This document shows positions 12,356-37,502 of a stretch of 64,000 bases of DNA, piece after piece. Source of the DNA: a virus. The translations under genes and the position numbers were made by a program. The stretch is taken from positions 32,774 to 96,773 of IMG/VR virus record IMGVR_UViG_3300030518_000006; one strand, given 5' to 3'. Every line of letters begins with the position of its first letter. Position 1 is the stretch's first letter. Under the pieces are notes generated by a model, which worked only from the letters and a program-made list of their open reading frames with translations, ran no database searches and was not told the DNA's origin.

Positions 12356-12363
12356 GACTGCTC

Positions 12364-13041: not shown

Positions 13042-13076
13042 GGGGCCTCCTAGGGGTTACGACCGAAGCCGGGACC

Positions 13077-20282: not shown

Positions 20283-20633
20283 ATGCCCCTCTACCACCTC
20301 CTCGGCCAGCCTCTCAACATCGACCCCAACACTGGCAAGCGCATCTGGGTCTGCCTGTGCGGGCAGAAGGTGAGCCTGCCGAATGTCCAGCCGGCGAACC
20401 AGGCGATCTCGATCTCCAACAACCGGGTGGAGGTCATGGAGTGCCCGGCGTGCTACAACGCCACGGATGAGAAGGAGGAAGAGGCCGCGCCGGTCAGCGA
20501 GACCGACGGGGAGCTCAAGCCGACCTTCGATCAGGACATCGGCGAGGCCACTGATGACCAGGAGGCACCTGACGAGACCACCGGCGACGGTGAGGTGCTC
20601 AAGGAAGAAAAGGTCGATTTCCCGGATACCTGA
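20283..20633 (+). CDS. Zn-ribbon protein with acidic tail (copy 2)
   Basis: WVCLCG..MECPAC, paralogue of 17662-18012. Confidence 0.65.
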   Translation: MPLYHLLGQPLNIDPNTGKRIWVCLCGQKVSLPNVQPANQAISISNNRVEVMECPACYNATDEKEEEAAPVSETDGELKPTFDQDIGEATDDQEAPDETTGDGEVLKEEKVDFPDT

Positions 20634-20651
20634 GATAGAGTCGCCCGCATC

Positions 20652-21014
20652 ATGGCGACTCTCCTCTATGAGAAACACTACGTCGGTACCGATGAGAACG
20701 TACCCACGGGTGAAGAGACCCTCTATTTCTGGTGCCCTGGCTGTAGAGGCGGTCATATGTACCGCATCAAGCGCAAGGACGGGGATACTCAGCAGCCCTT
20801 GTGGACCTGGAATGGCAGCAAGGAGAAGCCGACCTTCACCCCGTCGCTGCTGTATTACGAGACCGATCCGGTAACGGAGAAGCGCAAGTCGATCTGCCAT
20901 ATCTACGTCACGGGCGGAATGATCCAGTTCCTCGCGGATTGTCAGCATCACCTCGCTGGGAAAACGGTGCCCATGGTCGATCTGGATCTCCCTCTCAGTG
21001 AGCGGGAACGATAG
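20652..21014 (+). CDS. DUF6527-like Zn-binding protein
   Basis: FWCPGC..H..WTWNG..KPTFTPSLL..CH..G.IQFLADC.H.LAG. Confidence 0.7.
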   Translation: MATLLYEKHYVGTDENVPTGEETLYFWCPGCRGGHMYRIKRKDGDTQQPLWTWNGSKEKPTFTPSLLYYETDPVTEKRKSICHIYVTGGMIQFLADCQHHLAGKTVPMVDLDLPLSERER

Positions 21015-21030
21015 GCAGTACCGCTACGGC

Positions 21031-21058
21031 TTGACTTTCATTCCGCGCCATCCATACT
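21031..21058 (+). promoter_or_regulatory. Sigma70-like promoter (probably leaderless transcript)
   Basis: TTGACT-16-CATACT, ATG 7 nt downstream. Confidence 0.5.
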
Positions 21059-21065
21059 GCGGCTC

Positions 21066-21551
21066 ATGGGTTACACCCGCACCCCGGCGCACTACACCGC
21101 TAGCGCTGCCTATCACGGCGGCGATCCGGTGTGGATCCGCCCTGCCAATCTCGACCTGCGCCGTATCAACCCCCAAGGCGGGGCCGCGCTCGGCGACGAC
21201 GGCATTGACCTGATCGCGATGATCCCCCAGCTGACCCAGACCCTGGCAACCGTGGGCACCACGGCAGTCCAGTTGCGGGAACAGCAGATCCAGAACCAAC
21301 GCCAGGACGCGAACCAGGCCCAAGCCGTCGCCGCGACGAATGCGCAGACCGCCGCCCTGGAGCAAGCAACGGCGGCGAACCAAGCCGTCGCCGACCCAAC
21401 CGCATCGCCTGCGGCGGTACCGACTCCAGGCGTGTCACTTCCCACCCCGCACGGCAAGAAGGGGGGCGGCATGACTGTCCCCCTGATCATCGGGGGTACC
21501 GTCATCGGGATTGCCGTGGTTCTGGCATTGCTCAAGCTCCGCCGGGGCTGA
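21066..21551 (+). CDS. Tail-anchored virion membrane protein
   Basis: C-terminal TM followed by KLRRG. Confidence 0.65.
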   Translation: MGYTRTPAHYTASAAYHGGDPVWIRPANLDLRRINPQGGAALGDDGIDLIAMIPQLTQTLATVGTTAVQLREQQIQNQRQDANQAQAVAATNAQTAALEQATAANQAVADPTASPAAVPTPGVSLPTPHGKKGGGMTVPLIIGGTVIGIAVVLALLKLRRG

Positions 21552-21552
21552 T

Positions 21553-22767
21553 ATGGCCCGGTCCTACCAGCCCAACCTCGGGGCGCTCGAGCAGGCCCGG
21601 TACCAACACATGCACCGGAGAGCACGCAACCAGCTGGCCGGGTTGGGAGACGCATCCGTTCCGTACGTCCCGTCGGTCGCGGTCCAGGCAGCGATGACCC
21701 CGAACCTGACGGGCAGTGGCCCGACCATGACCCAGACCGCAGCGGTCACCGCCACCATGAAGTCGGCAATCATCGCCGCGGCGGTTGAGGTGTCCCTGGC
21801 CCAGACCATCGTCTCCACTGTCGGGGATGCCGTTATCAGCGCGGCCACAGTCGCCGCTGCCACGGCAATCACCGGTACTGCGGTCGCCGCAGGAGCCGCC
21901 GCCACGTCTGCATGCTTGTCCGCCGGGTGCTGCTGGCCGATTGTCGGGTGGGCCTTCGACGCCTTGGTGATCATCGGGGAATTCATCTCCAGCCAATCCG
22001 CCAAGCGCCAGACGGCGTTCGTGATCCAAGAGACCAAGGATCATATCAGCGCCTATGGCCAGGCGGCCCAGGCCGAGATCGACGCCATGCAACTCCAGAT
22101 CGGGCAGTCCGTCTACCCGACCGCACAGGCCCTGGCTGCGTCGACCCAGGCCCTCAACGGCTTCAACGGACTCGGGGGTCTGCCGCCGTGGGCTCGGGAA
22201 GTGATCTCCAAGGTCCAGGTCGATCTGATCAAGCAGGTCGGCAATCTGATCCTGAGTACCGGTGAACTCGGGGCCAAGATCGTGGGGGACAAGCATGGGG
22301 AAGAACTGGCTGCTAAGAAAAAGAAGCAGTTCGACGACAACTCGGACCGGGTCCAGCAGATGTTCTCCGGCAAGCTCAAGAACCCCTACCGGATGTTCGC
22401 CGACGGGCTCGACGATATCGGGCGCACCCTCGGGGGTGAGCAGGGCGTGCACGTGATCAACCAGAAGTGCTCTGAACTCCAGACGGCGGCCGAGGCAGAC
22501 ATCGATACCTGGAAGACCCAGACCGAGGCGGTGCTCCAGACCCCCGACTACACCCAAGCGGTCACCGTCAACATCGCCAAGGCCCTACGCGCGGACCCGA
22601 GTTTTACCGCCAATGTCACCACGATCGCGGCCAACAACCAGATGCTGGTGGCCTACTTCAACGGACTCAACGGGCTCTCCACCGACTCGTCCCGAGCGAA
22701 CAGCGCCGGTGGCTTGGTGGCGACCCTCGGAGGCATCGCTGCCGCCCTCTATTTCTTTAAGCATTGA
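21553..22767 (+). CDS. Tail-anchored virion membrane protein with GLG motifs
   Basis: LAGLGD, NGFNGLGG, NGLNGL; Ala-rich hydrophobic core; C-terminal TM + KH. Confidence 0.65.
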   Translation: MARSYQPNLGALEQARYQHMHRRARNQLAGLGDASVPYVPSVAVQAAMTPNLTGSGPTMTQTAAVTATMKSAIIAAAVEVSLAQTIVSTVGDAVISAATVAAATAITGTAVAAGAAATSACLSAGCCWPIVGWAFDALVIIGEFISSQSAKRQTAFVIQETKDHISAYGQAAQAEIDAMQLQIGQSVYPTAQALAASTQALNGFNGLGGLPPWAREVISKVQVDLIKQVGNLILSTGELGAKIVGDKHGEELAAKKKKQFDDNSDRVQQMFSGKLKNPYRMFADGLDDIGRTLGGEQGVHVINQKCSELQTAAEADIDTWKTQTEAVLQTPDYTQAVTVNIAKALRADPSFTANVTTIAANNQMLVAYFNGLNGLSTDSSRANSAGGLVATLGGIAAALYFFKH

Positions 22768-22791
22768 AATACCAACCATACCCCCTATCCT
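22764..22791 (+). promoter_or_regulatory. Sigma70-like promoter
   Basis: TTGAAA-16-TATCCT upstream of 22849. Confidence 0.4.
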
Positions 22792-22848
22792 GGCATCATC
22801 CGCTCTCATGAGCCCCGCGCCAACTTCTCCTTTCTAGGAACCCTACCC

Positions 22849-23520
22849 ATGGCTGGCTACCCCTCGATCAATGCTCCCGGCGCCCGTTCGCTCGCGGTGC
22901 CCCCGCCCAAGAGCCTGAAGATCCCGCTCGGGCGCCGACTGGACGCCAAGATGGCGAAGAACCTCATGTCCGCCCGCCCCAAGCGCGTGCCGCGCGACAA
23001 TGGCGGCGGCGGGTTCTTCCCCGGCATGGGTGAAGAGATGGACGAGACCGAGGTCAAGGTCGGGTACTCCGATCTCGGCCGGTGGTACGGCCCGAACCAG
23101 CGCCGCCCGGCGACCAGCGGCATGGCGCGCACCAATCGCCTTGCCGGCCTGGGCGACACCCCGACCGCCGGCTCCGGCACCCCCGGTGCGGCCACCGCGG
23201 CTCCCGCCCCGATCATCAAGCGCGTGCCCAATACCCCGCGTCACCTGGTGACCCAAGGCACCCCGACATCGATCTCCTCGGTCTCCGGCCTCGGCGCGCT
23301 GCACGCGGCAGCCCACGCCGCCCACGCCAAGACCAAGCATGCGGCGATCGTCAAGCACGCGGCGATCAAGGTGCACAAGCTCGCCCCGGCACACGACGGG
23401 TTCATGCCCGGCTTCGGCGCCTTCGACATGGCGAGCCTGACCAGCCCCAAGATGCTCATCGGCGGGGCGCTCGCCTTCGGCGCCTGGTATTTCCTGCTCC
23501 GCAAGAAGCGCCGCGCCTGA
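22849..23520 (+). CDS. Tail-anchored virion membrane protein with GFMPG/GLG motifs
   Basis: GFFPGMG, LAGLGD, SGLGA, DGFMPGFGA; C-terminal TM + RKKRRA. Confidence 0.7.
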   Translation: MAGYPSINAPGARSLAVPPPKSLKIPLGRRLDAKMAKNLMSARPKRVPRDNGGGGFFPGMGEEMDETEVKVGYSDLGRWYGPNQRRPATSGMARTNRLAGLGDTPTAGSGTPGAATAAPAPIIKRVPNTPRHLVTQGTPTSISSVSGLGALHAAAHAAHAKTKHAAIVKHAAIKVHKLAPAHDGFMPGFGAFDMASLTSPKMLIGGALAFGAWYFLLRKKRRA

Positions 23521-23523
23521 GCC

Positions 23524-23973
23524 ATGGGCTGGCTGACCCCCGAGATCACCGCCCCCGTCACCCTGAAGCTCACCGCTGATGACGTGCGGCGCGAGGCCCT
23601 GGGGCGGATCCTGTCGCTCTCCGGGGCAAGTGTCGGCATCATCGGGGGCATCCTGATCCTGTCCGCGAATCCGGCGCTCAAGGGCGCGGTCACCGCCGGA
23701 CAGGGCCAGACCATCACCCTGAGCGTCGCGGACGCCAAGAAGAGCGCCCTGGGCAAGTCCTTGGCCCTCATCGGTACTGGCATCGGTGTGGCAGGCTCCC
23801 TGCTGGTGATGAGCTCGAACCCGAAGTCCAAGGCCAAATTCGCGTCCGCCTATGACGCCCTGCCCGCCGGACTCAAGACCCACAAGAACGTGCTGATGGC
23901 CCTCGGTGGTGCCGCCGTGGTCGGCGGGATCGCCTACATGCTCAAACTCCAGAACTCGCAGTACGCCACATGA
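23524..23973 (+). CDS. Three-TM membrane protein
   Basis: Three Gly-rich hydrophobic segments. Confidence 0.65.
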   Translation: MGWLTPEITAPVTLKLTADDVRREALGRILSLSGASVGIIGGILILSANPALKGAVTAGQGQTITLSVADAKKSALGKSLALIGTGIGVAGSLLVMSSNPKSKAKFASAYDALPAGLKTHKNVLMALGGAAVVGGIAYMLKLQNSQYAT

Positions 23974-25763
23974 GCGACAACATCTTCACCCCGGTCGGCA
24001 ACACGGACGAGGCGTCGGCCCTGATGGGAACCAGCGGCCGGGTCTGGTCCCCCTTCTCCCCGTTCTTCAACCAGCGCGCCGCGGTGAAGCGAGACTTCGC
24101 CGAAGAGCGCGGCCGGTTCAAGCGCATCATGCGCCGCAATCCCCTCTCCGAGCAGGAGAAGCTCGCCCTGGTCAGCGGCACCGATCCCAAGGCTATCGTC
24201 CCGGTCACTGCCTCGCTCGCCGTCGGCGGCTTGATCGTGAACCGTGCTTGGGAGGATGCCGCTGACTACTGCGAGTATCTGGTCCGCCACTACCATTCCC
24301 GGATAGGTGGTGCGCGAGCGAAGGCGGACGCTGCGCGAGCGAAGAAGGGGCAGGGCCCGAAGATCATATCCAGTTCAGCCATTACCTGGGCGGTGGCGTT
24401 CAGCGCCATCGGCCAATACTGCAGGGCCCTGGCCGAGGGCCGGGAGCCGACGCGCCCTGCGCGCACCATCGCCGACCGGAAGGTGGGGGCGGTGATCTCG
24501 ATGTGGGATGACGTCCGCAAGTCCTGCCTGGCCGCGGAGGGCAACGTCAAGCTGCCGTTTGCCGCCTATTCCGAGATGCCGGTGGTGACCTGCCCCGGTG
24601 CCGGTGGGGTGACCAAGTTCTCCGGCCTGACGGGCAAGACCCTCGGCGTGGCAGTGCCAACCGGTCCCGATGTCCGCGGTTGCGCGTCCTTCTGCTACTC
24701 CCTGAAGGCCTTCGGCAAGCCCACCTGCGTCGCCCGCCAGCTGATCCTGACCCTCGGCGCGGCTGTGGATCCGGTGCGCCACGCCCAGGTAGTCACCGAG
24801 CAGATGACCAAGCTCGCCAAGAAGGGGACCAAGATCCTGCGCCTGTTTGTCGATGGGGACTTCCGCAGCGAAGCCTCGATCATTGCCTGGATGGACCACT
24901 GCGTCCGCCCGCTGCATGCGCTCGGCGTCACCGTCTATGGGTACAGCAAGTCGTGGGAGCATCTCCATGCCGTGCACCGGCAGAAGGGCGCATCCTGGTG
25001 GCCGACCAACTATGTGATGAACATCTCGAGCGGCAGCCGCTTCGCATCGGATCCGACCTGGCAGGCGCGCATCCGTGAACTGCCGGTTGCCCGCGGCGGT
25101 TTCCTGGCGGTGGATCCAATCCAGCGTCTGCTGTGGAAGGCGATGACCAAGGTTCACGGTGAAGCGGTCTGGCAGAAGTACTGCAACGCGGCCAGCCGAC
25201 ACGTCGGTCACCCCGGTGCGGCCGAGAAGCTCCTGCATGCTGTGAAGTCCATGATTGGCAAGGCGAACCCGGCCCTCGTCACCGATTACAACAACTACGT
25301 CAACACCATCCACATCATCGAGAATAAGCCGAGTGTGCTCAAGCGCATCGCCTCGATCGCCGGCGAGAAGGCACTCAAGCCGGGCCCAGTTGTCCAGGCC
25401 AGCACCTGGGCCTTCTTGTCCGAGCTGGTCAAGGGGCAGGAGATGCCGTGCCCGATCGCATGCGGGTCGTGCCCAAAGACCGCGATCATCACCCACGACA
25501 AGGTTGTGCGCGCCGCCTTGCAGCCGGAGCTCGATGCCCTCGGGGCCGAAATGCAGAAGAAGCACGGGATCTCGGAGAAGGAGCGCCGAGACTGGGAGGA
25601 ACACGTCCGGGGCACCGACGCGACGACCGTGTCTGCTGGCGAGGCTGAGGCCCGCAAGAACTACCGCGCCCAGGTCGCCGCCCAGATCGAGAAGGGCTCA
25701 CCGCTCATGCACTGGTGCGGGAACAAGAAGATGAAGCAAGACATCATCATCGGGTTGCATTGA
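23970..25763 (+). CDS. GP88-family-like Cys-motif protein with N- and C-terminal extensions
   Basis: VTCPGAG..CASFCYSLKA..RLFVDGDF..YGYSKS..PTNYVMNIS resembles phage GP88 family. Confidence 0.65.
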   Translation: MSDNIFTPVGNTDEASALMGTSGRVWSPFSPFFNQRAAVKRDFAEERGRFKRIMRRNPLSEQEKLALVSGTDPKAIVPVTASLAVGGLIVNRAWEDAADYCEYLVRHYHSRIGGARAKADAARAKKGQGPKIISSSAITWAVAFSAIGQYCRALAEGREPTRPARTIADRKVGAVISMWDDVRKSCLAAEGNVKLPFAAYSEMPVVTCPGAGGVTKFSGLTGKTLGVAVPTGPDVRGCASFCYSLKAFGKPTCVARQLILTLGAAVDPVRHAQVVTEQMTKLAKKGTKILRLFVDGDFRSEASIIAWMDHCVRPLHALGVTVYGYSKSWEHLHAVHRQKGASWWPTNYVMNISSGSRFASDPTWQARIRELPVARGGFLAVDPIQRLLWKAMTKVHGEAVWQKYCNAASRHVGHPGAAEKLLHAVKSMIGKANPALVTDYNNYVNTIHIIENKPSVLKRIASIAGEKALKPGPVVQASTWAFLSELVKGQEMPCPIACGSCPKTAIITHDKVVRAALQPELDALGAEMQKKHGISEKERRDWEEHVRGTDATTVSAGEAEARKNYRAQVAAQIEKGSPLMHWCGNKKMKQDIIIGLH

Positions 25764-25832
25764 CGTGCTAACTGGCCCCCGTTCACGAATTCCAGTAGAA
25801 TCCGCCACAACCCTGGATACAGTAGGCCACCT

Positions 25833-26267
25833 ATGATCCGCCGACGCCGCAGCCATCGCCGCTTCCGCCGCAACGCGCGCCCTGGTGAGAACCAGATCCC
25901 GACCGTGCGCATCGTCCGCCGGCCGAGCAAGAACCCCCGCCGCTTCATCCGCCGCAATGTGCCGATCACCCCGGCGCAGGCTGCCGCGATGAAGGCTGTC
26001 CTCCGAGCTCACGGCTACCTCAAGACCAACCCACTCCGCCGTCGCCACAAGCGGCGCAATCCCCGAAAGCACCGCATGGCACGCCATCACCGCAAGGTCC
26101 GCCGGAACCCCGCACCCCCGAAGGGCAAGCGCGCTGGCAGCGTGTTCAAGCGCAAGGGCAAGTGGTTCCGCATCTCACTCAAGAAGGTCCGCAAGGGTCG
26201 CCGCGTCGTCCGCCGCCGCGTCACCGTCAAGACCACCGCCCGCGCCGCGAAGCGCAGCCGCCGCTAA
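25833..26267 (+). CDS. Arg/Lys-rich core (DNA-condensing) protein with NP motifs
   Basis: 144 aa, extremely basic; SKNP, KTNP, RRNP x2. Confidence 0.7.
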   Translation: MIRRRRSHRRFRRNARPGENQIPTVRIVRRPSKNPRRFIRRNVPITPAQAAAMKAVLRAHGYLKTNPLRRRHKRRNPRKHRMARHHRKVRRNPAPPKGKRAGSVFKRKGKWFRISLKKVRKGRRVVRRRVTVKTTARAAKRSRR

Positions 26268-26301
26268 GCCTGCTCACCCTCACCTGATTCTGGAGACTCC
26301 C

Positions 26302-26532
26302 ATGCCCCGTCGCCGCCACAGCCGCTACCGCCGGAACCCCGGCAAGCTCCCCGTCAAGGTCACCTTCCGCAAGGGTGGCAAGCACGTGGTGATCTTCCGT
26401 CACCACAAGGCCACCGCCGCGACCAAGGCCAAGCGCCGGGCCGCGGGCAAGCGCCTTGCCAAGATGTGGACCGCCAAGGAGCGGATGGCGAACCTGCGCA
26501 AGGCGTGGGCTGCGAACCGCCGCCGTCGCTGA
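26302..26532 (+). CDS. Small basic core protein
   Basis: 76 aa; RRNPGK; RBS GGAG. Confidence 0.7.
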   Translation: MPRRRHSRYRRNPGKLPVKVTFRKGGKHVVIFRHHKATAATKAKRRAAGKRLAKMWTAKERMANLRKAWAANRRRR

Positions 26533-26605
26533 GTCGACCGTCAGCTGACCCGCAGCCCGGTCCTCCGCATCCTTGCGCGACCGGGCGGCACACCAGGACG
26601 AGCAC

Positions 26606-27697
26606 ATGCTCCCGCTCATCATCGGCATCGGCGCCGCAGCCCTCCTCCTCGGCCGTAAGGTCGTACGACGGACACGTCGGAATCCGCGGACGTATCGGCG
26701 GGTGAGTCGGAGGAATCCGCTAGAGGCCTATCACTTCTACTTCAGCACCCACCCGTCACTGATCCACGGGAAGCGTATCGGGTGGACCCGTTACGGCATG
26801 AGCGCCGAGCAAGTGAAACGGCTTGGCATCGCAGCAGCGAAACATGACTACCCGAAGGCCTGTGACTTCGCAGTGGCGAAGATCAAGAAAGGTTTACGGG
26901 CCAACCCCCTCCGCCGCGGCTCCTCCCGTGCCACCATCAGCGGCAACATCCGTAAGCTGATCCATGAAGGGCGCCCGCAGAAGCAGGCCATCGCCATCGC
27001 GCTGCGCACCGCTGGTGTCGCACGACGCAACCCGACCAACTGGGAGCAGCTGTTCGCCCAGGAGATGGCCCGCCAGCGCGCCGCTGGCACTGCAGCGCCC
27101 AAGCCGACCGGGTATGCAAGCGTCGCGACGATGCCGAACCCCGGGAAAATAGGGAATCGAATCGTCGCGCGTCACATGATCATGACGCAGGGGCGTGATA
27201 AATCTCTGCGCGAAGCGATTGATAAGCAACTCATGTATTCCCCTGGATCCAGGGAGCGTAAGAACTGGGCAGAGATTGCCCGTATCCTCGCGGGCAAGAC
27301 CAATCCACCCCGCCGCAAGGGCAAGCGCAAGGTCCGCCGCTCAAAGATCTCGGTGAGTCAGGCTGCGGCGCGGCTGATGCAGTGGCGGTGGCATCACAAC
27401 CCGGGAGGCAGCGATCTGGTGCCCTGGATTGTCGAGACCACCGAGATGCGCGGCTTCTCCCACGGCAAGCCCAACATCCGCACCGAGAAGAGCGCCTTCC
27501 GCGGTAAGAGCCACACCGCCAAGGCTCTCGCTGCTTGGGTGCTGCGCTACAACCAGTCCTTCACCTCGGGCGGGGTCAACAGTCACGCTTCCAAGGCCTT
27601 CGGCTACGAGCCCTACGCCTTCAAGGCCAAGCTGATCAACCAGCGCAATGGGCGAGTCGCCGCGACCTACAGCGCTCCGAAGTTCCAGGTGCTCTGA
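26606..27697 (+). CDS. N-terminally anchored basic multi-module protein with seven NP motifs (putative polyprotein)
   Basis: Start MLPLIIGIGAAALLLG; RRNP, RRNP, RANP, RRNP, MPNP, KTNP, HHNP separate distinct segments. Confidence 0.7.
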   Translation: MLPLIIGIGAAALLLGRKVVRRTRRNPRTYRRVSRRNPLEAYHFYFSTHPSLIHGKRIGWTRYGMSAEQVKRLGIAAAKHDYPKACDFAVAKIKKGLRANPLRRGSSRATISGNIRKLIHEGRPQKQAIAIALRTAGVARRNPTNWEQLFAQEMARQRAAGTAAPKPTGYASVATMPNPGKIGNRIVARHMIMTQGRDKSLREAIDKQLMYSPGSRERKNWAEIARILAGKTNPPRRKGKRKVRRSKISVSQAAARLMQWRWHHNPGGSDLVPWIVETTEMRGFSHGKPNIRTEKSAFRGKSHTAKALAAWVLRYNQSFTSGGVNSHASKAFGYEPYAFKAKLINQRNGRVAATYSAPKFQVL

Positions 27698-27700
27698 CCC

Positions 27701-30700
27701 ATGCGCTCCGCCACCCCCTCCCTCGCCGACGGCGACATCAACGCCGACTACAGCGTCCTGCCGGAGAACGGCAACGACGCGGTCGACGCGACCGTCCAGA
27801 AGATGGTCGAGATGGCGGCCGGCAAGTGGGGCCGCGAGAGTCCCAAGATCCGCGCTGCGGCGATCAACATCGTGCGGGGTCTGGATCCGATCACTGGCGA
27901 ACGATTCGCGCCTCAGGTCGCCAGCAAGGACTACTACGGGATGCTCGAGCAGATCCACAACTGGGTCCGCGACAACATCATGTATGTCAAGGACGTAGTG
28001 GGTCAGGAAACCCTGAGTTATCCCGAAGAAACGCTCTTCAACTCCCGTGCAGAGGACTGTGATGGGCAAGTGATTCTGGAGATGGCCCTCCTCGGCTCGA
28101 TCGGCTTGCAGAGCTATCCCGTCATCGTCGGGATGTTCCCGGGCCACTACTCACACGTCTACATGTATGCCGAGGTGCCCCCGGGGCGCCATCGCAACGC
28201 CGACACCACCTGGGCCGCCGATCCCATCATGAAGGACTGGCCGCTTGGCAGGGAGGCCCCGGCTGATAGGGTCAAGGCTAAGAAGGTCTACTCGAACCTC
28301 GCAGGATTTAACATGCCACTCAACGGATATGCTTCTTCCGACGCGGCGTTCTCTCCCCAGGACGAGCTCGAGGCCACGCAAGTCGGCACCGTGCTCGCCA
28401 CCCGCCTGACCGACTCCGGGGGTGCTGGGCAGATCGTCAATGCGAACCGCCTGACCCAGTGGGGCGATGAGCTGGACGACATGTTCAATGCCGAAGCGAC
28501 CGTCAATCCGATGCAGGCCGCGCCTGCCAGCCTGCTCTACGCCCGCGGCCCGGTGGTCGCCCGTGCAGCACGCGAGCAGACCTCCTACCTCAGCGAAGCC
28601 CCGCTCGGCGGGGGACGCAACCGGCCCGGGATGCGCCGTGGCCCCCTGATCATCACGGTCAAGGACAAGGCAGTCGGCGATTCGGTCACCAAGCCCAAGG
28701 CTCCGACCGTCAACGGCCTGATGGGCCTGGCAGACTACCTCGGTGAGCTCGCCCCGATCGCCAAGGTGGTCGGCAAGCGCATGAGCGTGAACGGCAAGCG
28801 CGACGCGCTCCATGCCACAGCGGCGGCAGCCCACCTCGCCAAGAACCAGGCCAAGAAGGCGACCAACCGGGTGGTCAAGCTGCAGCGCGACGGGTTCATG
28901 CCCGGCTTCGGCGCCGACATGCAGCCGGACAAGACGCTCGATGTCGCCATGCAGATCGAGAAGCTGGCCCACCAGGTCTCGGCCCAGGCCGATCAGATCG
29001 CCCAGCTCGCCGCCGGCAGCAGCCCACTCCGCCAGCAGGCCCTGAGTGTCGATCTCGGGGCGATGGACTACATGAACGAGCATGCCGCGGTGTCGGACCT
29101 GCTCGACAACATGCAGCTCCCCAACGTGCCGACCAAGGACATGGCCAAGCTCAAGTCCGTCGCCCTGGTCAACTGCATCCAGGATCCGGACGTCAAGCAG
29201 CTCGCCGTCGATCTCGCCCAGACCGATCTGCCGACCGCACCTGGTGCACGCGTCAAGACCCGGCTGCCCGAGGGCGCCATCGTGCGTGACCAGATGGGCA
29301 AGGTCATCCAGAATGGCGGGGGTGATGATAGCCTGGCCGGCCTGGGCGAACTCACCCGCAAGCGCCGCATCAAGCGCGCCCTGGCCGAGTTCAACGAGAG
29401 CACCGACACCAGCGCCATCGCCAACGCCCTGCGCGCCTCGGCGAATGGCCTGGCGGGCTACGCGAATGAACCGGGCCTCGGGCGTTCCCTGAGCCAGGCC
29501 ATCAGCGGCGTGGCCAAGTCCGTGGTCGCCAGCATCACGGTCCCCGTCAAAGCTGCGGTCGCGACCGTGGTCGACCCGATCAAGCTCGCCCAGACCGTCG
29601 CCACCGGCGGCTCGGTGAAGGCGGCGCTCACGAGTGACGTCCAGAACGTCACCAACCCGATGAACCAGGCGCTCAAGCAGATCGTCACCAGCACCCAGAA
29701 GGCTCCCTCGACCCCGGCGACCCCGGCGACCCAGTATGAAGACGCCAACGGCAATATCATCAGCGCTGGGTTGTACAACAGCCTGATGTTGAACCCGTCG
29801 ACCCCTGAGAGTTGCTTCGACGCGAACGGCAGCGCCCTGAACACGACCGGCTGCGTCTACGCGCCGGGCACCCCGGGCGCGACCGTGACCCAGACCACCG
29901 GCGCGTCGACCCTGTCCCAGTTCCCCGGCGGGACCTGCTTCAGCGCATCCGGTGCCTCGACCGGTGCGACCGGATGCTTCAGCCCGTCGACCGGTGCGGC
30001 CTGCTGGACCTTCACCAGCGCCACGACCGCCCCGACCGCGACCAACGCGGCCCCGGACTGCCCGATGGCTCCGGTGTCTGGATACAACCCCCAGGTCATG
30101 GGCCCCTATGCCAGCGGCCCGGGCGCTCAATGCTTCAACGTGACCACGGGTCAGCCGACCGGTGTGCCGGGATGCACGAGCCCCTCGACCGGTGTGGCGT
30201 GCTACGCCTGGCAGGGCCCGTCCGCCCCGCCGGTCGCGACCAATGCCGCGCCTGACTGCGCCGGGGCGACGTACAATCCGTACGCTGCCCAGCAGCCGTA
30301 CTATCCGCCCGGCGGCGGTGCGTCACCGTACGACCAGTCCACGCCCGATGGCACCAACTACGACCCGAATACGGGTGAGAGCCTGACCTCGACCCCGGAC
30401 TACTCCAACCAGGGTCCCCCGGACGACAGCGGCTTCGGGCCCGACCAGATGGGCCCGGCGTCCTATGCGGACAACAGTCAGCAGGACGAGAACACCGTGG
30501 CGGTCTCGGCCAGCGGTGGCGGCGGGTTCGACCCCTCGGGCAACTCGGGCATCACCGCCGGCGGCCAGTCTGACAGCGGTGATGATGGCTCGGATGATGG
30601 CGGCTCGGATGATGGCGGCTCGGATGATGGCGGCACTGATGATGGCTCGGGCGATGCGACCGATGTGTCCCAGTACAACGCCCCGTCCCAGGCCCCGAAG

Positions 30701-31027
30701 CACAAGAAGCACAAGTATTACAACATGGACACCGACTCGGGCGGTGACAACTCGGACACCAGCGACAGCGGCGAGGCCTCCGACGATGACAGTGACCTCG
30801 ACACCGGGATCAACGGCGACGTGGCCACGGGGGACATGTACCCCGAGGACGATCTCAACGAGGATGGGGGCGCCGGCTACGGCCGGGGCACCGCCCTGAC
30901 CCCGTCGATCGAAGGCCTCGGGGCCTTCTCCGCCTCCAGCCTGGTCAAGCCGGCACTCGCGATCGGCCTGGGCATCATCCTGTGGAAGACCGTCGGTAAG
31001 AAGCTCTTCAAGCGGAAGCGTGCCTGA
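27701..31027 (+). CDS. Transglutaminase-like (Cys-His-Asp) protein, candidate maturation protease, with long tail-anchored C-terminal region
   Basis: YVKD..ETL..P..EDCDG, SHVY, WAADP; then GFMPGFG/GLG motifs, Cys-rich repeats, acidic DDGGS repeats, TM + KKLFKRKRA. Confidence 0.8.
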   Translation: MRSATPSLADGDINADYSVLPENGNDAVDATVQKMVEMAAGKWGRESPKIRAAAINIVRGLDPITGERFAPQVASKDYYGMLEQIHNWVRDNIMYVKDVVGQETLSYPEETLFNSRAEDCDGQVILEMALLGSIGLQSYPVIVGMFPGHYSHVYMYAEVPPGRHRNADTTWAADPIMKDWPLGREAPADRVKAKKVYSNLAGFNMPLNGYASSDAAFSPQDELEATQVGTVLATRLTDSGGAGQIVNANRLTQWGDELDDMFNAEATVNPMQAAPASLLYARGPVVARAAREQTSYLSEAPLGGGRNRPGMRRGPLIITVKDKAVGDSVTKPKAPTVNGLMGLADYLGELAPIAKVVGKRMSVNGKRDALHATAAAAHLAKNQAKKATNRVVKLQRDGFMPGFGADMQPDKTLDVAMQIEKLAHQVSAQADQIAQLAAGSSPLRQQALSVDLGAMDYMNEHAAVSDLLDNMQLPNVPTKDMAKLKSVALVNCIQDPDVKQLAVDLAQTDLPTAPGARVKTRLPEGAIVRDQMGKVIQNGGGDDSLAGLGELTRKRRIKRALAEFNESTDTSAIANALRASANGLAGYANEPGLGRSLSQAISGVAKSVVASITVPVKAAVATVVDPIKLAQTVATGGSVKAALTSDVQNVTNPMNQALKQIVTSTQKAPSTPATPATQYEDANGNIISAGLYNSLMLNPSTPESCFDANGSALNTTGCVYAPGTPGATVTQTTGASTLSQFPGGTCFSASGASTGATGCFSPSTGAACWTFTSATTAPTATNAAPDCPMAPVSGYNPQVMGPYASGPGAQCFNVTTGQPTGVPGCTSPSTGVACYAWQGPSAPPVATNAAPDCAGATYNPYAAQQPYYPPGGGASPYDQSTPDGTNYDPNTGESLTSTPDYSNQGPPDDSGFGPDQMGPASYADNSQQDENTVAVSASGGGGFDPSGNSGITAGGQSDSGDDGSDDGGSDDGGSDDGGTDDGSGDATDVSQYNAPSQAPKHKKHKYYNMDTDSGGDNSDTSDSGEASDDDSDLDTGINGDVATGDMYPEDDLNEDGGAGYGRGTALTPSIEGLGAFSASSLVKPALAIGLGIILWKTVGKKLFKRKRA

Positions 31028-31029
31028 TC

Positions 31030-31905
31030 ATGCCCCTCCCCCGCCCCTTCGTCGACAATTCCTATCGGACTGAGAGCGTCGATCTCCAGCCGTTCGGGAA
31101 CACCGTGTCGATCGAGACGGGCTCGGACAACCCGTTCGAAGACGACCAGGGCATCGAGGTCGTAACCCAGCAGAGCGGGGGGATGGCGGGGCCTGATCCA
31201 CGGATGCGCTCGCGCAAGACCCTGGTCCGGGGAACACGCGTCACCGCGCATCCCGCCGGTGTGTCCCGTACGTACCACACCCGCAGCCAGGCCAATCGCC
31301 AGGGCTTCATGCCCGGGATGGCGGGGTTCGCCGGTCTGGGTATCGACATGCCGACTGATGACAGCGGTAGCGGCGGCGATGCCACCCCGGCCGATGCCAC
31401 CGACTTCAACGCCCTGACCACCGACCAGGATGCCTCCCTGTTCGCCCAGCCGGCACCCCAGAACCAGAACCTCTTCGCGATGCCTGCGCCGGGCCAGCCG
31501 GGCAGCGGCCTGCCCGCACCGAGCGCCGCAGCCACGCCTGCAGCTGCCCCTGCCGCCGCGCCTGCCGCTCCTGCAGCAGGTGGCGGGGGTGCAAAGGCTG
31601 CCAGTGGTGCGGCCACCGCCCTCACAGCGTTGACCGCCCTGACCCAGGCTGCCGGCCAGACCGGGACCGCGGTGCTCGCTGCCCAGACCAAGGCGGCCCA
31701 GGCGAAAGCAGCCCAGAGCAAGCTCCCAGCCGCAGCCAGCGCGCTCGGCAAGCAGGTCGAAACCTACTGGCCCTACATCGCTGGCGGTGTGGGCCTGGTG
31801 CTGGTGCTCGGCCTCGTCTTCGGTGGTGGCTCCCGCTCGACCACCGTCATCGCCGCGCCTGCAGCTGCTCCCGCCAAGACCAATCCCCGCAAACGCCGTC
31901 GCTGA
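31030..31905 (+). CDS. Tail-anchored virion protein, paralogue A
   Basis: ~100-aa leader ending GFMPGMAGFAGLG shared with next gene; TM then KTNPRKRRR. Confidence 0.75.
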   Translation: MPLPRPFVDNSYRTESVDLQPFGNTVSIETGSDNPFEDDQGIEVVTQQSGGMAGPDPRMRSRKTLVRGTRVTAHPAGVSRTYHTRSQANRQGFMPGMAGFAGLGIDMPTDDSGSGGDATPADATDFNALTTDQDASLFAQPAPQNQNLFAMPAPGQPGSGLPAPSAAATPAAAPAAAPAAPAAGGGGAKAASGAATALTALTALTQAAGQTGTAVLAAQTKAAQAKAAQSKLPAAASALGKQVETYWPYIAGGVGLVLVLGLVFGGGSRSTTVIAAPAAAPAKTNPRKRRR

Positions 31906-31914
31906 GAGATACCC

Positions 31915-32607
31915 ATGCCACTCCCCAAAGCATTCGTCGATAGCTCCTACCGCACCGAGCCCGTCGATCTGCAGCCCTTCGGCAACACGGTCTCGATCGA
32001 GACCGGCTCGGACAACCCGTTCGAGGATGACCAGGACGTGGAGATCTTCTCCCAGCAGAGCGGCGGGATGGCCGGGCCCGATCCGCGCATGCGTTCCAAG
32101 AAGACCCTGATCAAGGGCACCAAGGTCACGACCCACCAGGCTGGTGTGGCGCGCACCTACAAGACCCGCAGCCAGGCCAATCGCCAGGGCTTCATGCCCG
32201 GGATGGCGGGGTTCGCCGGTCTGGGTGCTGATCCGGCGCCAGGCCTGGACCAGGACGAGGGCAATCCGCCCGGCTACGTGCCGCCGGCTGGCCAAGCGGC
32301 CCCTGCATCCCCTGCTGCCCCTGCTGCCCCGCCCACCGGCGCCTGGGCCGCCCTGACGAGCCTGTTCTCCGCGGTTCCCGCCGGCGTCACCGCCTATGAG
32401 ACCGCCAAGAGCAACGCTCCCAAGCCCCCAGGCATGCCGCCTGCGGGCATGCCCCCGGCCCCCGGCAAGAGCACCAGCATCACCAAGATGCTGCCCTGGA
32501 TCCTGGGCGGTGTTGGCGTGCTGGTCGTCGGCGGCCTCCTGGCCGGCCGCAGCAAGCCGGCAACCGTGGTCGCCACCAATCCCCGCCGCCGGCGCCATCG
32601 CCGCTAA
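31915..32607 (+). CDS. Tail-anchored virion protein, paralogue B
   Basis: Same leader; TM then ATNPRRRRHRR. Confidence 0.75.
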   Translation: MPLPKAFVDSSYRTEPVDLQPFGNTVSIETGSDNPFEDDQDVEIFSQQSGGMAGPDPRMRSKKTLIKGTKVTTHQAGVARTYKTRSQANRQGFMPGMAGFAGLGADPAPGLDQDEGNPPGYVPPAGQAAPASPAAPAAPPTGAWAALTSLFSAVPAGVTAYETAKSNAPKPPGMPPAGMPPAPGKSTSITKMLPWILGGVGVLVVGGLLAGRSKPATVVATNPRRRRHRR

Positions 32608-32647
32608 CCCCACCAGACCTCTGCCCCTCTCCTGAAGGAACCGACCC

Positions 32648-33109
32648 ATGCAACGTGACATGTCCTACGAGCTCGACTCGGTGTTCTCTGGCCGAGGCGC
32701 TGGTGAGCTGGTGCAGGTCCAGCAGCCCCGCACCCGCATGAGCCGGACTCCCGGCCTGCAGCAGACCACCCGGTCCTCGGTGACCAAGATCAGCGCGCCG
32801 CTGGATCACAAGCTGTCCACGAGCCATCCCCACAACATCACGGCCCACAACACCAAGAGCCTGGCTCATGGTCTCGGCAAGCCGTTGAACGCCCGGTTCT
32901 ATACCGAGCCGAGCGACCTGGCAGGCATCGAGGATCTCGCCTGCGATGATGGGGACATGGGGATGGGGATGGGGGCCTATGATGACGATGACATGCCCTT
33001 CGGCGACCTGACCCTCCCGTTCATTGGCCCGGTCAGCAAGACCGGCGTCGCCATCGCCCTGATCTCCGGCTTCATCGCGTGGAAGCTGTTCAAGCCCAAG
33101 CGCGCATGA
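32648..33109 (+). CDS. Tail-anchored virion protein
   Basis: HGLG, DLAGIE; C-terminal TM + KLFKPKRA. Confidence 0.7.
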   Translation: MQRDMSYELDSVFSGRGAGELVQVQQPRTRMSRTPGLQQTTRSSVTKISAPLDHKLSTSHPHNITAHNTKSLAHGLGKPLNARFYTEPSDLAGIEDLACDDGDMGMGMGAYDDDDMPFGDLTLPFIGPVSKTGVAIALISGFIAWKLFKPKRA

Positions 33110-33594
33110 AAGCGATCCTGGGCATCGGCCGGCTGCTCGCACTGCACCTGGTCGATCCCACCACCGGTCGAACCACCACACGAAAGACCCCTGGCACATG
33201 GCTCGGATGGGACACCACGACGCGGCAATTCCTGCTCTGCAAGCCCAAGGGGCGCAGCCGGGCACCGTTACCGTCACGCGTCGTGCGGGCACATCGGCGA
33301 TTCCACGCCCACGATCCGGCCTCTGGTGGGCGCCTGGTGGAGGTGCCGACACCGATCGGACGGCGCCAGCAGATCGCGCTGATCAAGGCCCTGGACTACT
33401 TCGTGCCCAAGCAAGTGATCAGCCCCGACAAGAATCCGTTCGGGTGGACACACGCCTTTGGGGACACCGGCCACAAGGGCGGAACCTATACCGCGAAGGT
33501 GATGCCGGCGCTGGTCAGGGACTCGCGCGGTAACCTCTTCATCAAGCGGCGGAAGGGTAACATCTTCACCGTCGACACCTGGCTCCGAGGATAG
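33106..33594 (+). CDS. Hypothetical basic virion-module protein
   Basis: ATGA overlap; 162 aa. Confidence 0.6.
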   Translation: MKAILGIGRLLALHLVDPTTGRTTTRKTPGTWLGWDTTTRQFLLCKPKGRSRAPLPSRVVRAHRRFHAHDPASGGRLVEVPTPIGRRQQIALIKALDYFVPKQVISPDKNPFGWTHAFGDTGHKGGTYTAKVMPALVRDSRGNLFIKRRKGNIFTVDTWLRG

Positions 33595-33600
33595 AACACC

Positions 33601-34161
33601 ATGGCCGCCCTCCCCTTCAAACTCAAGATGAACGCCAAGACGCTCGGCATCGGCGCCGGTGCCCTGGTCGGCCTGTTCCTGGTCTACAAGCTCGCCTTCC
33701 ACAAGAGCAAGAAGGCGGCCGAGGATACCAGCACCTCCGGTGATGCCGCGGCCCTCGCCCAGATCCAAGCCCAGCTGAACCAGCAGGGCCAGACGCTCGC
33801 TGCGGCCACGGCGGCACCTGCAGCCCCAGCCTACGGCACCCCCGGATATGGGTTGCCCTACACCCCGGCGTATGCCGCTCCCACCTACGGCACCCCGGGC
33901 TATGTGGCCCCCTATGCGGCCCCGGGCACCACCCAGGCCTCAGGACCTCCTGCTACCCCGCCGGTCGGGGGGTACCAGTGGATCTGGAACGGCGCCGCCT
34001 GGACCCAGACCCCGGCCGCCACCCCGGTCGGGATGCACTGGCAGCAGCTGGGATCGACCTTCCAACTCGCCCCGAACGCTTCGAGCGTGGCCTACATCGA
34101 TCGCCGGCCGGCGAGCCCGGCCTCGATCATCCCGACCACGGTGCTCACGCCGCCGAACTAG
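33601..34161 (+). CDS. N-terminally anchored Pro/Ala/Tyr-rich protein
   Basis: TM near the N-terminus, AP.YGTPGY repeats. Confidence 0.65.
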   Translation: MAALPFKLKMNAKTLGIGAGALVGLFLVYKLAFHKSKKAAEDTSTSGDAAALAQIQAQLNQQGQTLAAATAAPAAPAYGTPGYGLPYTPAYAAPTYGTPGYVAPYAAPGTTQASGPPATPPVGGYQWIWNGAAWTQTPAATPVGMHWQQLGSTFQLAPNASSVAYIDRRPASPASIIPTTVLTPPN

Positions 34162-34764: not shown

Positions 34765-34789
34765 GATGAATCTCCTTGTGGTGGTAGAG

Positions 34790-35692
34790 TTACTGGATTT
34801 CCCGGTGGATCGTGCCATCGAGTTGCACCCGGATCTCGGCCGACTCGAAATGCTTGCCGCCGGTATTGATGGTCAGGCCGAACCATTGGACCGGCGGGAT
34901 GTAGATCGTCGGGGTGATGCCCACGTGCTTCAGACGCATGCGCGGGAGCAGGGGGCCGTACTCGCCATCCTTGATCGGGTCGTCGTCCCGCTCCATGTTC
35001 TTGAGCGGCATGGTGAGGTACCTCTTCTCGCCGATCTGGAGTTCGAAGTGCGCCTCGGAGATGTCGACGAGGTGGGAGAATGAGATGCGCACGCCATCGA
35101 GATCGAAACGCTTGGGCCAGGTGAGCTGACCTGAGGTAGCTAGATTGGTGATTGCCGGCCCCCGATTCGGCCCGCCGCCGGTCTGGAAGAAGACGATCGG
35201 GGGTGGATTAGCGATGTACTCATCGCGGCGTCCCATCGGCACGTTGAACATGGTCCCATGGACCTGGGTGTCGTAGAGCGGCTGGCGACACGATTCCAGG
35301 CGGATCGTTCCGTTCTGAGCATCCTTGTGCTCGGTGAAGCGCGCACCGGGGGATGGTTTCAGGTCATCCAGGCCACGCGAGCCCTGCAAGGCATCATCCA
35401 GCTGCTTGGCAAGATCTGCGTCTGATACGTCCTCGAAGCCGGTCAGGGATTGCCAGTACTCCTCGGTCGAGCGAAAGACCTGGCCTTTCTCCGGCTTGGG
35501 GTCCTTGGTCTTCTTCGGTGGTTTGGTCGCGGCAGGCATGGAGAGATCTCCTGGCATGGGGTTGGTGGTGCGCGTCATGTGACGTTGGAGCACCTCTTGG
35601 ATGGTGAGCTGGTAGGACTCCGAATGTGCTTTGTACCAAGCCAGCACATCGGGATCGATGCGCATGGTGATCGAGGTTTTCTTCTTGGGCAT
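34790..35692 (-). CDS. BrnA-like ribbon-helix-helix domain fused to a capsid-protein paralogue
   Basis: N-term MPKKKTSITMRIDPDVLAWYKAHSESYQLTIQEVL (BrnA-like); C-term IRLESCRQPLYD..TNLATSGQLTWPKRF..GEKRYLTMP..IYIPPVQWF..LDGTIHREIQ. Confidence 0.8.
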   Translation of the reverse strand: MPKKKTSITMRIDPDVLAWYKAHSESYQLTIQEVLQRHMTRTTNPMPGDLSMPAATKPPKKTKDPKPEKGQVFRSTEEYWQSLTGFEDVSDADLAKQLDDALQGSRGLDDLKPSPGARFTEHKDAQNGTIRLESCRQPLYDTQVHGTMFNVPMGRRDEYIANPPPIVFFQTGGGPNRGPAITNLATSGQLTWPKRFDLDGVRISFSHLVDISEAHFELQIGEKRYLTMPLKNMERDDDPIKDGEYGPLLPRMRLKHVGITPTIYIPPVQWFGLTINTGGKHFESAEIRVQLDGTIHREIQ

Positions 35693-35697
35693 ACCTG

Positions 35698-35726
35698 TAT
35701 GTACGTAGATACGTACAGACTTGCAA
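35698..35726 (-). promoter_or_regulatory. Leaderless promoter with palindromic operator
   Basis: Minus strand TTGCAA-17-TACATA-5-ATG; TGTACGTA-GA-TACGTACA palindrome at 35700-35717. Confidence 0.65.
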
Positions 35727-35888
35727 GACCCGAGACGTACATACGAGCTGGGTCTTGGTGCATCGGGCGAAGGGCATAGGCTGGGCCGTGTCGCATGTGG
35801 TTGCGCCGCCTCCTCTGCTGGGGCCGCCCGATCAACAGCATATGTGCAATCGCTTCTGCCGCTCCTGATGAGCGTGACGAGAACCCCG

Positions 35889-36728
35889 ATGCCCATGATG
35901 CTGATGTCCAATCCAGGTCTGCACCTCGCCCTGCTCGGGAACCCGTATCGCGGTCGTTCCCGCAAGCGCCGTCATTCCTGTTCCAACCCTCGTCGTTCAC
36001 ACCGCCGTGCGTCCGCACGTCGGCACCGTCGTTCCCACACCCAAAGGAGAAACCCCATGGGATTCGCCAAGCAGTACGTGAGCTCCGTCAAGGCAGCTCC
36101 CCGTGAGATCCTCGGGATCTTCAAGGGCAAGAACAAGATCAAGAACATCGCCTTCGCGCTCGGTGGCGCCGTCGCCACCTACGCCCTGGGCGGAATCGTC
36201 AACACCTCACTCGTGACCCCCGGTCTCAACGCCATCCCTGGCGCGGGTCCGGCGCTCAGCGGCCCGATGGCCAAGCGCGTGATCGGTGCGGCAGTGCCCT
36301 TCACCCTCGGCTTCGTCGCCAACAAGTTCATCAAGGGTGACCTCGGCAAGGCCCTGGTGGTTGGTGGGGCTATCGCCTCGCTCGCCGAGGCGATCAGCCC
36401 CGGGCTCATCGCCCGCCTGGTCTACCACACCCCGGCTGTCGGCCCCGTGGCCGTTGCTGCAGCGCCTGCTGCCGCTGTCCAGGGCCCGGTGAACGGTCTG
36501 AATGGTCTCGGGGGCTACGTTGACGCGCGTGCGTACAACGGCACCGGGGACATGGCCCCGCTCGACGGCTATGTCGACGCCCGCGCCTACAACGGCACCG
36601 GCGAAGAGCTGGCCGGCTATGTCGACGCCCGCGCCTACAACGGCACCGGGGACATGGACGATGACCTGGCTGGCATCGGCAGCGACTACCTGACCGAGAG
36701 CACCAAGTACATGGAATCCTATCTCTGA
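35889..36728 (+). CDS. Putative major membrane/scaffolding protein
   Basis: Basic N-terminus with four NP motifs, Gly-rich hydrophobic core, three GYVDARAYNGTG repeats; directly upstream of the capsid gene. Confidence 0.65.
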   Translation: MPMMLMSNPGLHLALLGNPYRGRSRKRRHSCSNPRRSHRRASARRHRRSHTQRRNPMGFAKQYVSSVKAAPREILGIFKGKNKIKNIAFALGGAVATYALGGIVNTSLVTPGLNAIPGAGPALSGPMAKRVIGAAVPFTLGFVANKFIKGDLGKALVVGGAIASLAEAISPGLIARLVYHTPAVGPVAVAAAPAAAVQGPVNGLNGLGGYVDARAYNGTGDMAPLDGYVDARAYNGTGEELAGYVDARAYNGTGDMDDDLAGIGSDYLTESTKYMESYL

Positions 36729-36926: not shown

Positions 36927-37502
36927 ATGCCCGTCTTCCGCACCGTCAAGGATGCCCGCTCCGGCTCGATCCGGCTCGAAGCCATCCACCAGCCGCTGTA
37001 TGACAGCGTGCTGCTCGCCACCACCCTGCAGACGTCCGCAACGCTGTTCTCCCTCGGGAACAACGGTCGCTCGGCGCTCTACACCAACCTCCAGACCGCT
37101 GGCCAGCTCAGCTGGCCGAAGCGCTTCTCGATCCGCGCCCTGCGTCAGGTGCTCGGCTTCAACAGCGCGACCTACGCCAACGTGGCCGCCTTCTGGGCTG
37201 CGGCGTTCTACCAGCTGCAGGTGGGTGAAAAGGTTTATCTCACCATCCCGGCGTTCATCCTCACCGCCGGCGGCGGCCTGAGCCAGCAGACCCTGGTCCC
37301 GGCTACCGCCACCACGGCGGGAACCATCAACTGTGAAACCGGCTGGCCGGACCAGCGGAATATCTACTCGCTGCTGCACTCGATTTATTTGCCGCCCGTG
37401 CAGAACTTCTTCCTGGCACTGACGACCGCTGGCGGGACCCTGACCGCTTCGACGTACTGCCACATCTTCCTGGAAGGTGAGCTGCTCCGCGAAATCCAGT
37501 AA
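36927..37502 (+). CDS. Putative major capsid protein (single jelly-roll-like)
   Basis: 191 aa beta-rich; strong RBS GGAGGAG, last gene of the virion operon, followed by a strong terminator; three paralogues elsewhere. Fold is inferred. Confidence 0.6.
   Translation: MPVFRTVKDARSGSIRLEAIHQPLYDSVLLATTLQTSATLFSLGNNGRSALYTNLQTAGQLSWPKRFSIRALRQVLGFNSATYANVAAFWAAAFYQLQVGEKVYLTIPAFILTAGGGLSQQTLVPATATTAGTINCETGWPDQRNIYSLLHSIYLPPVQNFFLALTTAGGTLTASTYCHIFLEGELLREIQ

Follow-up and report, generated by a model that had tools for sequence, protein, structure and literature searches.

The protein of 363 aa encoded at 26606-27694 (+ strand) of the DNA analysed here, a window of 64,000 nucleotides that forms the right-hand 64 kb of one 96,773-bp IMG/VR virus record, is composed of a hydrophobic N-terminal helix followed by six small modules, and the parts meet at Asn-Pro (NP) dipeptides. 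Sequence comparison with relatives showed that the units of a common pool of modules end at these NP seams, i.e. modules are gained, lost, reordered and exchanged there, and that the exchange runs between genes as well as between viruses. As a proposal whose chances we judge to be evenly balanced, the product would be a membrane-tethered basic chain whose seams are processed between Asn and Pro during virion assembly or maturation.

The record was rated 100% complete by CheckV and is linear without end repeats, and a megablast search for a known phage yielded no match. The gene is located in a rightward block (20283-34161), in which at least eight products carry a hydrophobic segment at one end, as read by eye from the translations. 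Its ORF is open over 26573-27697, and the ATG at 26606 was assigned as the true start because the relatives share the beginning M-L-P-(L/I)-I-L-G-I-G-A-A-A-L-L-L-G-R-K and an AGGA lies 9-12 nt upstream. The product is strongly basic (72 K+R versus 17 D+E) and was hardly described by the family collections: no Pfam family matched the whole protein at E up to 0.1, no PDB chain matched it by sequence at E up to 1, phrog_2423 was its sole match in PHROGs, and the matches to proteins of phage records were confined to residues 101-158. Among the four families searched for in the genome, namely Peptidase_C13 (legumain type), Peptidase_S78 (HK97-type prohead protease), Terminase_6N and the HK97 Phage_capsid, none was found, and the lack of the latter three fits a non-tailed virus, weakly. 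The virus, an uncultured one of ∼97 kb, is probably tailless and membrane-containing. Candidate capsid proteins are encoded at 36927-37502 and by the paralogues at 10870-13622.

Seven NP dipeptides were counted in the protein against 0.88 expected, and at least seven were reached in just 2 of 100,000 shuffles; a chance origin of the count was ruled out by this shuffle test together with the family-wide counts given below. The Asn residues are 26, 37, 100, 142, 178, 233 and 265, and the Pro codons start at 26684, 26717, 26906, 27032, 27140, 27305 and 27401, exactly where a preliminary description of this DNA had placed seven NP motifs. That the NP pairs divide the protein into unrelated segments, as also claimed there, was borne out by fold prediction and by module clustering, which both returned separate modules. 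At the module boundaries the seam has the form (R/K/H)-x-N-P. On the DNA level Asn is encoded by AAC or AAT and Pro by CCC, CCG or CCA, with the flanking bases differing at every site, and since the codons vary synonymously, the constraint acts on the protein. In the AlphaFold model of the whole protein, all seven NP pairs were located in coil between confident elements, pLDDT fell below 50 at residues 21-36, 96-98, 169-197 and 264-266, and the pTM of 0.36 indicates that the parts have no fixed mutual arrangement.

The chain, all on the + strand, starts with a probable membrane anchor, a hydrophobic helix of residues 1-16 (26606-26653), within which the top Kyte-Doolittle window (15 residues, value 2.49) was found and AF2 predicted a helix at residues 2-14. 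The same helix is present as module B in 18 of the 32 family proteins, and as no charge precedes it and a basic flank follows, an N-out/C-in topology is predicted. Two basic seams, RRN26-P27 and RRN37-P38 (26681-26719), lie beside the anchor, where residues 21-36 have a pLDDT below 50. Module G (residues 38-100, 26717-26905) is predicted as beta-beta-alpha-beta (strands 40-47, 57-64 and 86-92, helix 67-81), ends with RAN100, and was also found, bounded by NP, in the relatives P0002, P0003, P0004 and P0019. It is followed by module C, the two-helix phrog_2423 domain (residues 101-142, 26906-27031), which runs from N100|P101 to N142|P143, and by module D (residues 143-178, 27032-27139), which consists of one helix (143-160 in the AF2 model) and a Pro/Gly-rich tail ending with MPN178 and was found in seven proteins. 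The next module (residues 179-233, 27140-27304) is, by the alignment and the module architectures, private to the window virus, and relatives carry module K or L, or nothing, in its position. Module A (residues 234-265, 27305-27400), a basic run plus AAARL-x-x-WRWHHN, is the best-conserved piece of the family, with columns 237-266 invariant in the alignment, and is present in 23 of the 32 proteins. The chain is closed by module J (residues 266-363, 27401-27694; F in the architectures listed below), a compact alpha/beta domain of a ∼90-aa standalone family, which was predicted with a pLDDT of 91 when folded alone. For its fold, Foldseek returned nothing at E up to 0.001, the best VIA-align score (Z 4.2) was at noise level, and the ESM Atlas gave no usable match.

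For two of the modules, residue-exact counterparts were found among free-standing phage proteins, so that the seams resemble cutting marks. An exhaustive search with phmmer, covering 1.8 billion representatives, retrieved 516 proteins matching the 363-aa protein. Residues 101-143 aligned to positions 2-44 of the 52-position phrog_2423 profile (E 1.3e-12), more than 60 standalone phrog_2423 representatives aligned to module C, and in dozens of standalone proteins of 50-100 aa residue 2, a Pro, fell on residue 101 of the query. As the standalone proteins begin with M-P-L-K-K-G-S-S, Asn100 replaces their Met. The resemblance of the segment 26906-27028 to small proteins beginning MPLKKG, noted at the outset from the letters alone, could so be confirmed, and the same holds for that of the last segment (from 27401) to a standalone phage protein, because residues 266-363 aligned with 24 standalone proteins of ∼90 aa such that P266 pairs with their Met1 and the alignment runs to a common C-terminus. 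Standalone members were found by phmmer with E down to 9e-9, and two standalone copies are in jumbo phages. Module J agrees with the family pattern MG(K/R)S-x-TPKY...GGVN-x-H...FQV in a full-length alignment that includes the motifs GGVN-x-H and A-P-x-F-Q-V, and L43, S53, N60 and F95 were invariant in a 26-sequence alignment (numbering of the 98-aa module; plus 265 for the polyprotein).

A rule for the residue before the Pro emerged when a profile made from the standalone phrog_2423 proteins was used for locating the domain in all 168 proteins retrieved. Among the matches listed, the N-terminal domains (n = 46) have Met before the Pro in 45 cases and Val in one, and the internal domains (n = 84) have Asn in 60, M, V or L in 19, Asp in two and another residue in three. 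The 19 internal cases with M, V or L are probably miscalled starts. In 60 of the 65 listed internal cases that are not start-like, Asn precedes the Pro across very different proteins, including lysine-rich ones outside the family, in which NP was counted 134 times versus 21.8 expected, with selection inflating the count by about one NP per protein. An Asn codon is two base changes away from ATG, so the Asn before Pro is no relic of a start codon. Among the indirect signs that the Asn-Pro bond as such is important, this rule is the strongest. For the domain itself, a role in the head interior is suggested by its fusion in Acinetobacter phages, e.g. AB1, where it forms the N-terminus of the prohead (head maturation) protease, and by a cyanophage, where its gene has the head-morphogenesis and major head genes on either side; the context differs in phiCbK, whose standalone phrog_2423 gene is among tRNA genes and not head genes.

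Relatives of the protein were retrieved by using the back-translation of WRWHHNP as the query. The family is rare: in 5.8 billion clusters it comprised 22 proteins, whose contigs measure up to 88-104 kb; for the distant relatives, the genome-contig scan yielded no context and the metagenome scan one 1-kb fragment. By cutting 32 related proteins at every NP and clustering the pieces, 19 recurring module families were obtained, which covered whole pieces and occurred in differing orders, such as B-G-C-D-K-A-F, B-E-I-A-M-C, B-H-I-A-E and A-G-x-C-x, where x refers to a piece unique to one protein. These proteins contain 164 NP versus 19.2 expected, 45% of their Asn precede Pro, position -2 of the seams is R, K or H in 77%, and basic residues follow. 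Among the x-Pro pairs only NP was enriched (8.5-fold, against 0.9-fold for SP, 0.66-fold for TP and 1.6-fold for DP); a generic helix N-cap as the cause of NP was ruled out, because Ser-Pro and Thr-Pro were not enriched.

Gains, losses and exchanges were observed at the seams. In P0004 the phrog_2423 module is missing, with the gap running precisely from one NP to the next; residues 179-233 are missing from P0005, and P0003 carries a different module at the 179-233 site, which P0007 has after its last seam. Between the window and its sister virus L002, DNA identity is 84-87% on both sides of an unalignable stretch (26533-27307); the first 233 codons are replaced in L002, with homology being restored from 27308 onwards, the first base past the N233-P234 codons. 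In 69% of cases a BLAST segment ended no more than 5 residues from an NP or from a terminus, compared with 22% for random positions; as the segments are mutually dependent, the difference is taken as supportive only. Two checks that the preliminary description had proposed are answered by these data: the homology ends of the segments do coincide with NP, and module order and content do differ between relatives. The Asn-Pro rule is not absolute: N-G stands before module J of L006, and one has to go 14 residues upstream to reach an NP.

Several further features of the relatives were observed. In L018 (- strand, 5334-6527, record G001), an anchored NP protein of 397 aa contains N-P-RRRRKARRAKSRRR-N-P twice in identical form, so this 18-residue basic linker was duplicated and linkers can duplicate along with modules. 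In the giant protein P0124 (1709 aa), module J is present and the many small modules are split by a repeated (S/Q)-R-R-T-A motif, not by Asn-Pro, which may be a second junction code of another virus. A second clade (P0010, P0021, P0023, P0024, P0029 and P0163-P0166) has an invariant Asp-Pro, GDPRTAATQR, at the first junction after the anchor, and Asp is capable of the same cyclisation chemistry as Asn. A module of the relatives with the pattern CFDKGY...CPY...GW was presumed by us to resemble the ribosome modulation factor (RMF), a likeness for which Pfam gave no support at E up to 0.05.

The genes upstream are drawn from the same material. The gene at 25833-26267 (+) encodes an arginine-rich protein of 144 aa with four basic NP seams (0.53 NP expected) and belongs to the same module pool as the 26606 gene; in L006, L018, L019 and P0016 its N-terminal module, RRNARP-x-ENxIPTVRIV, forms fusions with different partner modules. 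The 76-aa gene at 26302-26532 (+) is equal to module O, which in L006 (2092-3153) and in a 214-aa gene of L018 is fused C-terminally, in frame after ...SN|P-(H/R)-x-R-x-x-M and with its own Met kept. As the same unit is a free gene here and a fused module in two relatives, free genes and modules interconvert, by fusion or fission.

Directly downstream, the gene at 27701-31027 (+) encodes a protein of 1108 aa whose N-terminal part forms a transglutaminase-like Cys-His-Asp domain and whose C-terminus carries a membrane anchor. The domain was assigned through Transglut_core with E 0.01, below the Pfam family cut-off, an assignment that fits protease, amidase and transglutaminase activity alike; its catalytic Cys (residue 120, motif EDCDG) is invariant in all five sequences compared, and its His and Asp are aligned in four, with the fifth carrying an insert. 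The same arrangement was found in four of four related IMG/VR viruses examined, one of which is a complete 109.5-kb genome with terminal repeats: as in the window virus, NP genes are located directly upstream of the transglutaminase-like gene, and these NP-rich genes number two to four, the N-terminal anchor being shared by most of them. By this position, we infer the 27701 protein to be a candidate processing enzyme of the NP chain. In phage records its sole relative is gp34 of SSIP-1 (Salisaeta icosahedral phage 1), a membrane-containing tailless phage (40% over 82 aa, E 9e-13). Like the 27701 protein, gp34, which carries a structural-protein annotation, combines a transglutaminase-like Cys-His-Asp domain with a C-terminal anchor. 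Rather than processing the NP chain, the 27701 domain could be a cell-wall-degrading or entry enzyme, like its SSIP-1 relative. Unlike the window virus, SSIP-1 has no NP-rich proteins, and beyond gp34 the two share one weak match, that of gp3 to 39170-40144 of the window (27% over 92 aa, E 1.6e-4). The kinship with gp34 and the absence of the tailed-phage families are consistent with a large tailless membrane-containing virus.

Other observations concern these neighbours. In L019 (- strand, 3980-4969, record G002), the transglutaminase-like gene is 1380 aa long and carries an insert of ∼310 aa directly after the catalytic Cys, which starts with C-L-A-E-G-T-R-V-L-T and is intein-like; lying within the active site, it suggests that the site is essential, and the substrate is not indicated thereby. 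The paralogous membrane proteins at 31030-31905 and 31915-32607 have, past their anchor, the tails KTNPRKRRR and ATNPRRRRHRR, and a TNP plus arginine-run tail is also present on many NP polyproteins of relatives. Further downstream, a leftward cassette with a BrnA-like fusion gene (window 34785-36000, L002 16838-18053) is 98% identical between the two viruses, compared with 84-87% for the flanking structural genes, which suggests a recent exchange.

The mechanism that we propose is as follows. The N-terminal hydrophobic helix would tether the chain to the membrane, and six small, independently folding modules would follow it like beads on a string, connected by floppy (R/K/H)-x-Asn-Pro joints. 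A cut between Asn and Pro at each seam would free modules with an N-terminal Pro, i.e. the very end that a standalone phrog_2423 protein has after Met removal, and would at the same time separate the entire chain from the anchoring helix. Cutting would be done by the adjacent membrane-anchored transglutaminase-like Cys-His-Asp enzyme, or else by cyclisation of the Asn side chain as in asparagine peptide lyases; a protease and self-cleavage at Asn are considered equally possible. Self-cleavage is opposed by the seven seams having differing local contexts in disordered linkers, as the known Asn self-cleavage needs a folded catalytic environment, and the 27701 protein as the cutter by its co-occurrence with NP genes being within one lineage, which may reflect descent only. 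Cutting would be timed at virion assembly or maturation, and the pieces would travel in the particle as basic core or cargo proteins. Against this stands the positive-inside rule, by which the chain would face the cytoplasm, in a PRD1-like assembly the capsid-facing and not the DNA side of the membrane. The preliminary reading as a polyprotein of formerly independent genes is upheld in so far as the modules are separate, their boundaries match NP, and modules exist as independent genes elsewhere, even within the virus group; its cutting step stays a prediction. A broader proposition, to which we give slightly less than an even chance, is that Asn-Pro represents a widely used, previously undescribed cut-site code of prokaryotic viruses, served by a new Asn|Pro protease, possibly the membrane-anchored transglutaminase-like enzyme, or by self-cleavage of the Asn-lyase kind; effector or core proteins of small size would be synthesised as polyproteins bearing a membrane anchor or an arginine tag and set free with Pro at their N-terminus, and their modules would be swapped freely at the seams.

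The competing explanation that carries most weight, although we consider it rather unlikely, is that the protein stays whole and Asn-Pro is a structural or docking linker element of a multi-domain, membrane-anchored basic scaffold, where the Asn-Pro turn might be recognised by a partner protein, DNA or the capsid, or might serve as a packaging tag, and where module shuffling merely respects domain boundaries. The linkers that hold the seams are indeed rich in arginine and could bind DNA or acidic lipids; the TNP-RRRR-type tails end the membrane proteins 31030 and 31915, where cutting would free only ∼6 to 9 residues; and the candidate protease scores below its Pfam cut-off, with Peptidase_C13 and Peptidase_S78 not found. 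Left unexplained by an intact scaffold, however, are why the residue before the Pro is Asn rather than Ser, Thr or Asp, and why Asn stands before the internal phrog_2423 domain in those 60 of 65 listed cases that are not start-like.

Two further explanations dispense with cutting, and both are regarded as very improbable. In a 2A-like skip during translation, no peptide bond would be formed before the Pro, and several proteins would arise from one mRNA without a protease; 2A peptides likewise end with N-P-G|P, and the conserved 30-residue element before N265-P266 (basic run, AAARL-x-x-WRWHHNP) resembles a nascent-chain arrest peptide. Yet the consensus D-x-E-x-NPGP is absent from all seven seams (NPG at two, NPGP or the upstream D-x-E at none), no conserved peptide precedes the other six seams, and 2A skipping is not known to operate on bacterial ribosomes. 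Equally improbable are NP pairs that have no role in the protein and are footprints of a DNA-level recombination signal for cassette exchange. The breakpoint between the ∼85% identical viruses, falling exactly after an NP, would suit such footprints, whereas the Asn-Pro rule holds also in the lysine-rich proteins outside the family that have the same domain, and the variation of the Asn and Pro codons and their flanks between sites rules out a DNA repeat or recombination signal as the sole cause.

Functional analogues of the proposed cleavage exist in other viruses. The polyproteins pp220 and pp62 of ASFV are cut by the viral cysteine protease and the core precursors of adenovirus by adenain during maturation, at Gly-Gly-X or (M/I/L)XGX-G motifs and by adenain/SUMO-protease-like enzymes. 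They resemble the NP chain in that a membrane-associated or basic precursor lies under an internal membrane or capsid and a short motif is repeated at the junctions; the NP chain differs in its Asn-Pro motif, in a candidate enzyme of transglutaminase-like type and in that its cutting is only predicted. With (R/K/H)-x-N-P at its module boundaries as a putative cleavage motif, the chain shares the repeated junction motif of virus-processed polyproteins. The ASFV polyproteins are treated in PMC9910796. Asparagine peptide lyases (MEROPS N6, FlhB/YscU; N7, reovirus mu1) break the bond after Asn through side-chain cyclisation; FlhB cuts at Asn|Pro-Thr-His, and several viral coat proteins self-cleave at Asn inside the particle (PMC3207474). 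These lyases cut once within a folded domain, whereas the seven sites here are in disordered linkers; the NPTH motif of the FlhB/YscU type is absent, the nearest being NPTN at residues 142-145, with module J being the one compared by fold. Compared with the phrog_2423 proteins and the N-terminus of the Obolenskvirus prohead protease, residues 101-142 are a clear family member, and the difference is that the domain is internal here, has Asn-Pro on both sides, and occurs in a virus without detected Terminase_6N or HK97-type capsid.

The published concept that comes closest is that of the polyvalent proteins of phages and conjugative elements described by Iyer, Burroughs, Anand, de Souza and Aravind in 2017 (PMC5512222), in which 2-15 unrelated, enzymatic domains share one large polypeptide with an embedded metallopeptidase, and for which processing into separate units was proposed. 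The likeness consists of unrelated domains in one phage chain, mosaic architectures and a late or structural gene context, and the 363-aa protein has the domain count of that class, with six modules plus the anchor in a viral record and a pTM of 0.36 without interdomain packing. It differs from the class in that Pfam and PHROGs revealed no MPTase, MuF, ART, nuclease, methylase or other domain of the class, and in that its modules are 30-100 aa long and function-unassigned, an anchor is present, and Asn-Pro is at every joint. No junction motif is given in the passages of PMC5512222 that were searched. The literature searched on phage virion polyproteins and polyvalent proteins contained nothing on Asn-Pro seams. 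The present analysis contributes two standalone families that are matched to the residue, a rule by which Asn precedes the Pro of the phrog_2423 domain, a probable membrane anchor, a breakpoint immediately behind a seam and the kinship of the neighbouring enzyme with SSIP-1 gp34.

The processing of polyproteins characterises the viruses of eukaryotes and is rare in those of bacteria, and the proposed cut-site code would be its bacterial-virus counterpart. If the seams are cut, large uncultured viruses would possess a simple two-residue code for packaging and exchanging many small proteins, and a protease or a self-cleavage chemistry accepting Pro at P1′, as few known proteases do, would be implied. 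The NP code would offer a practical way to divide hundreds of ‘hypothetical’ viral proteins into real functional units, and would tie orphan small phage proteins, i.e. phrog_2423 and the ∼90-aa family, to a role in the virion or in early delivery.
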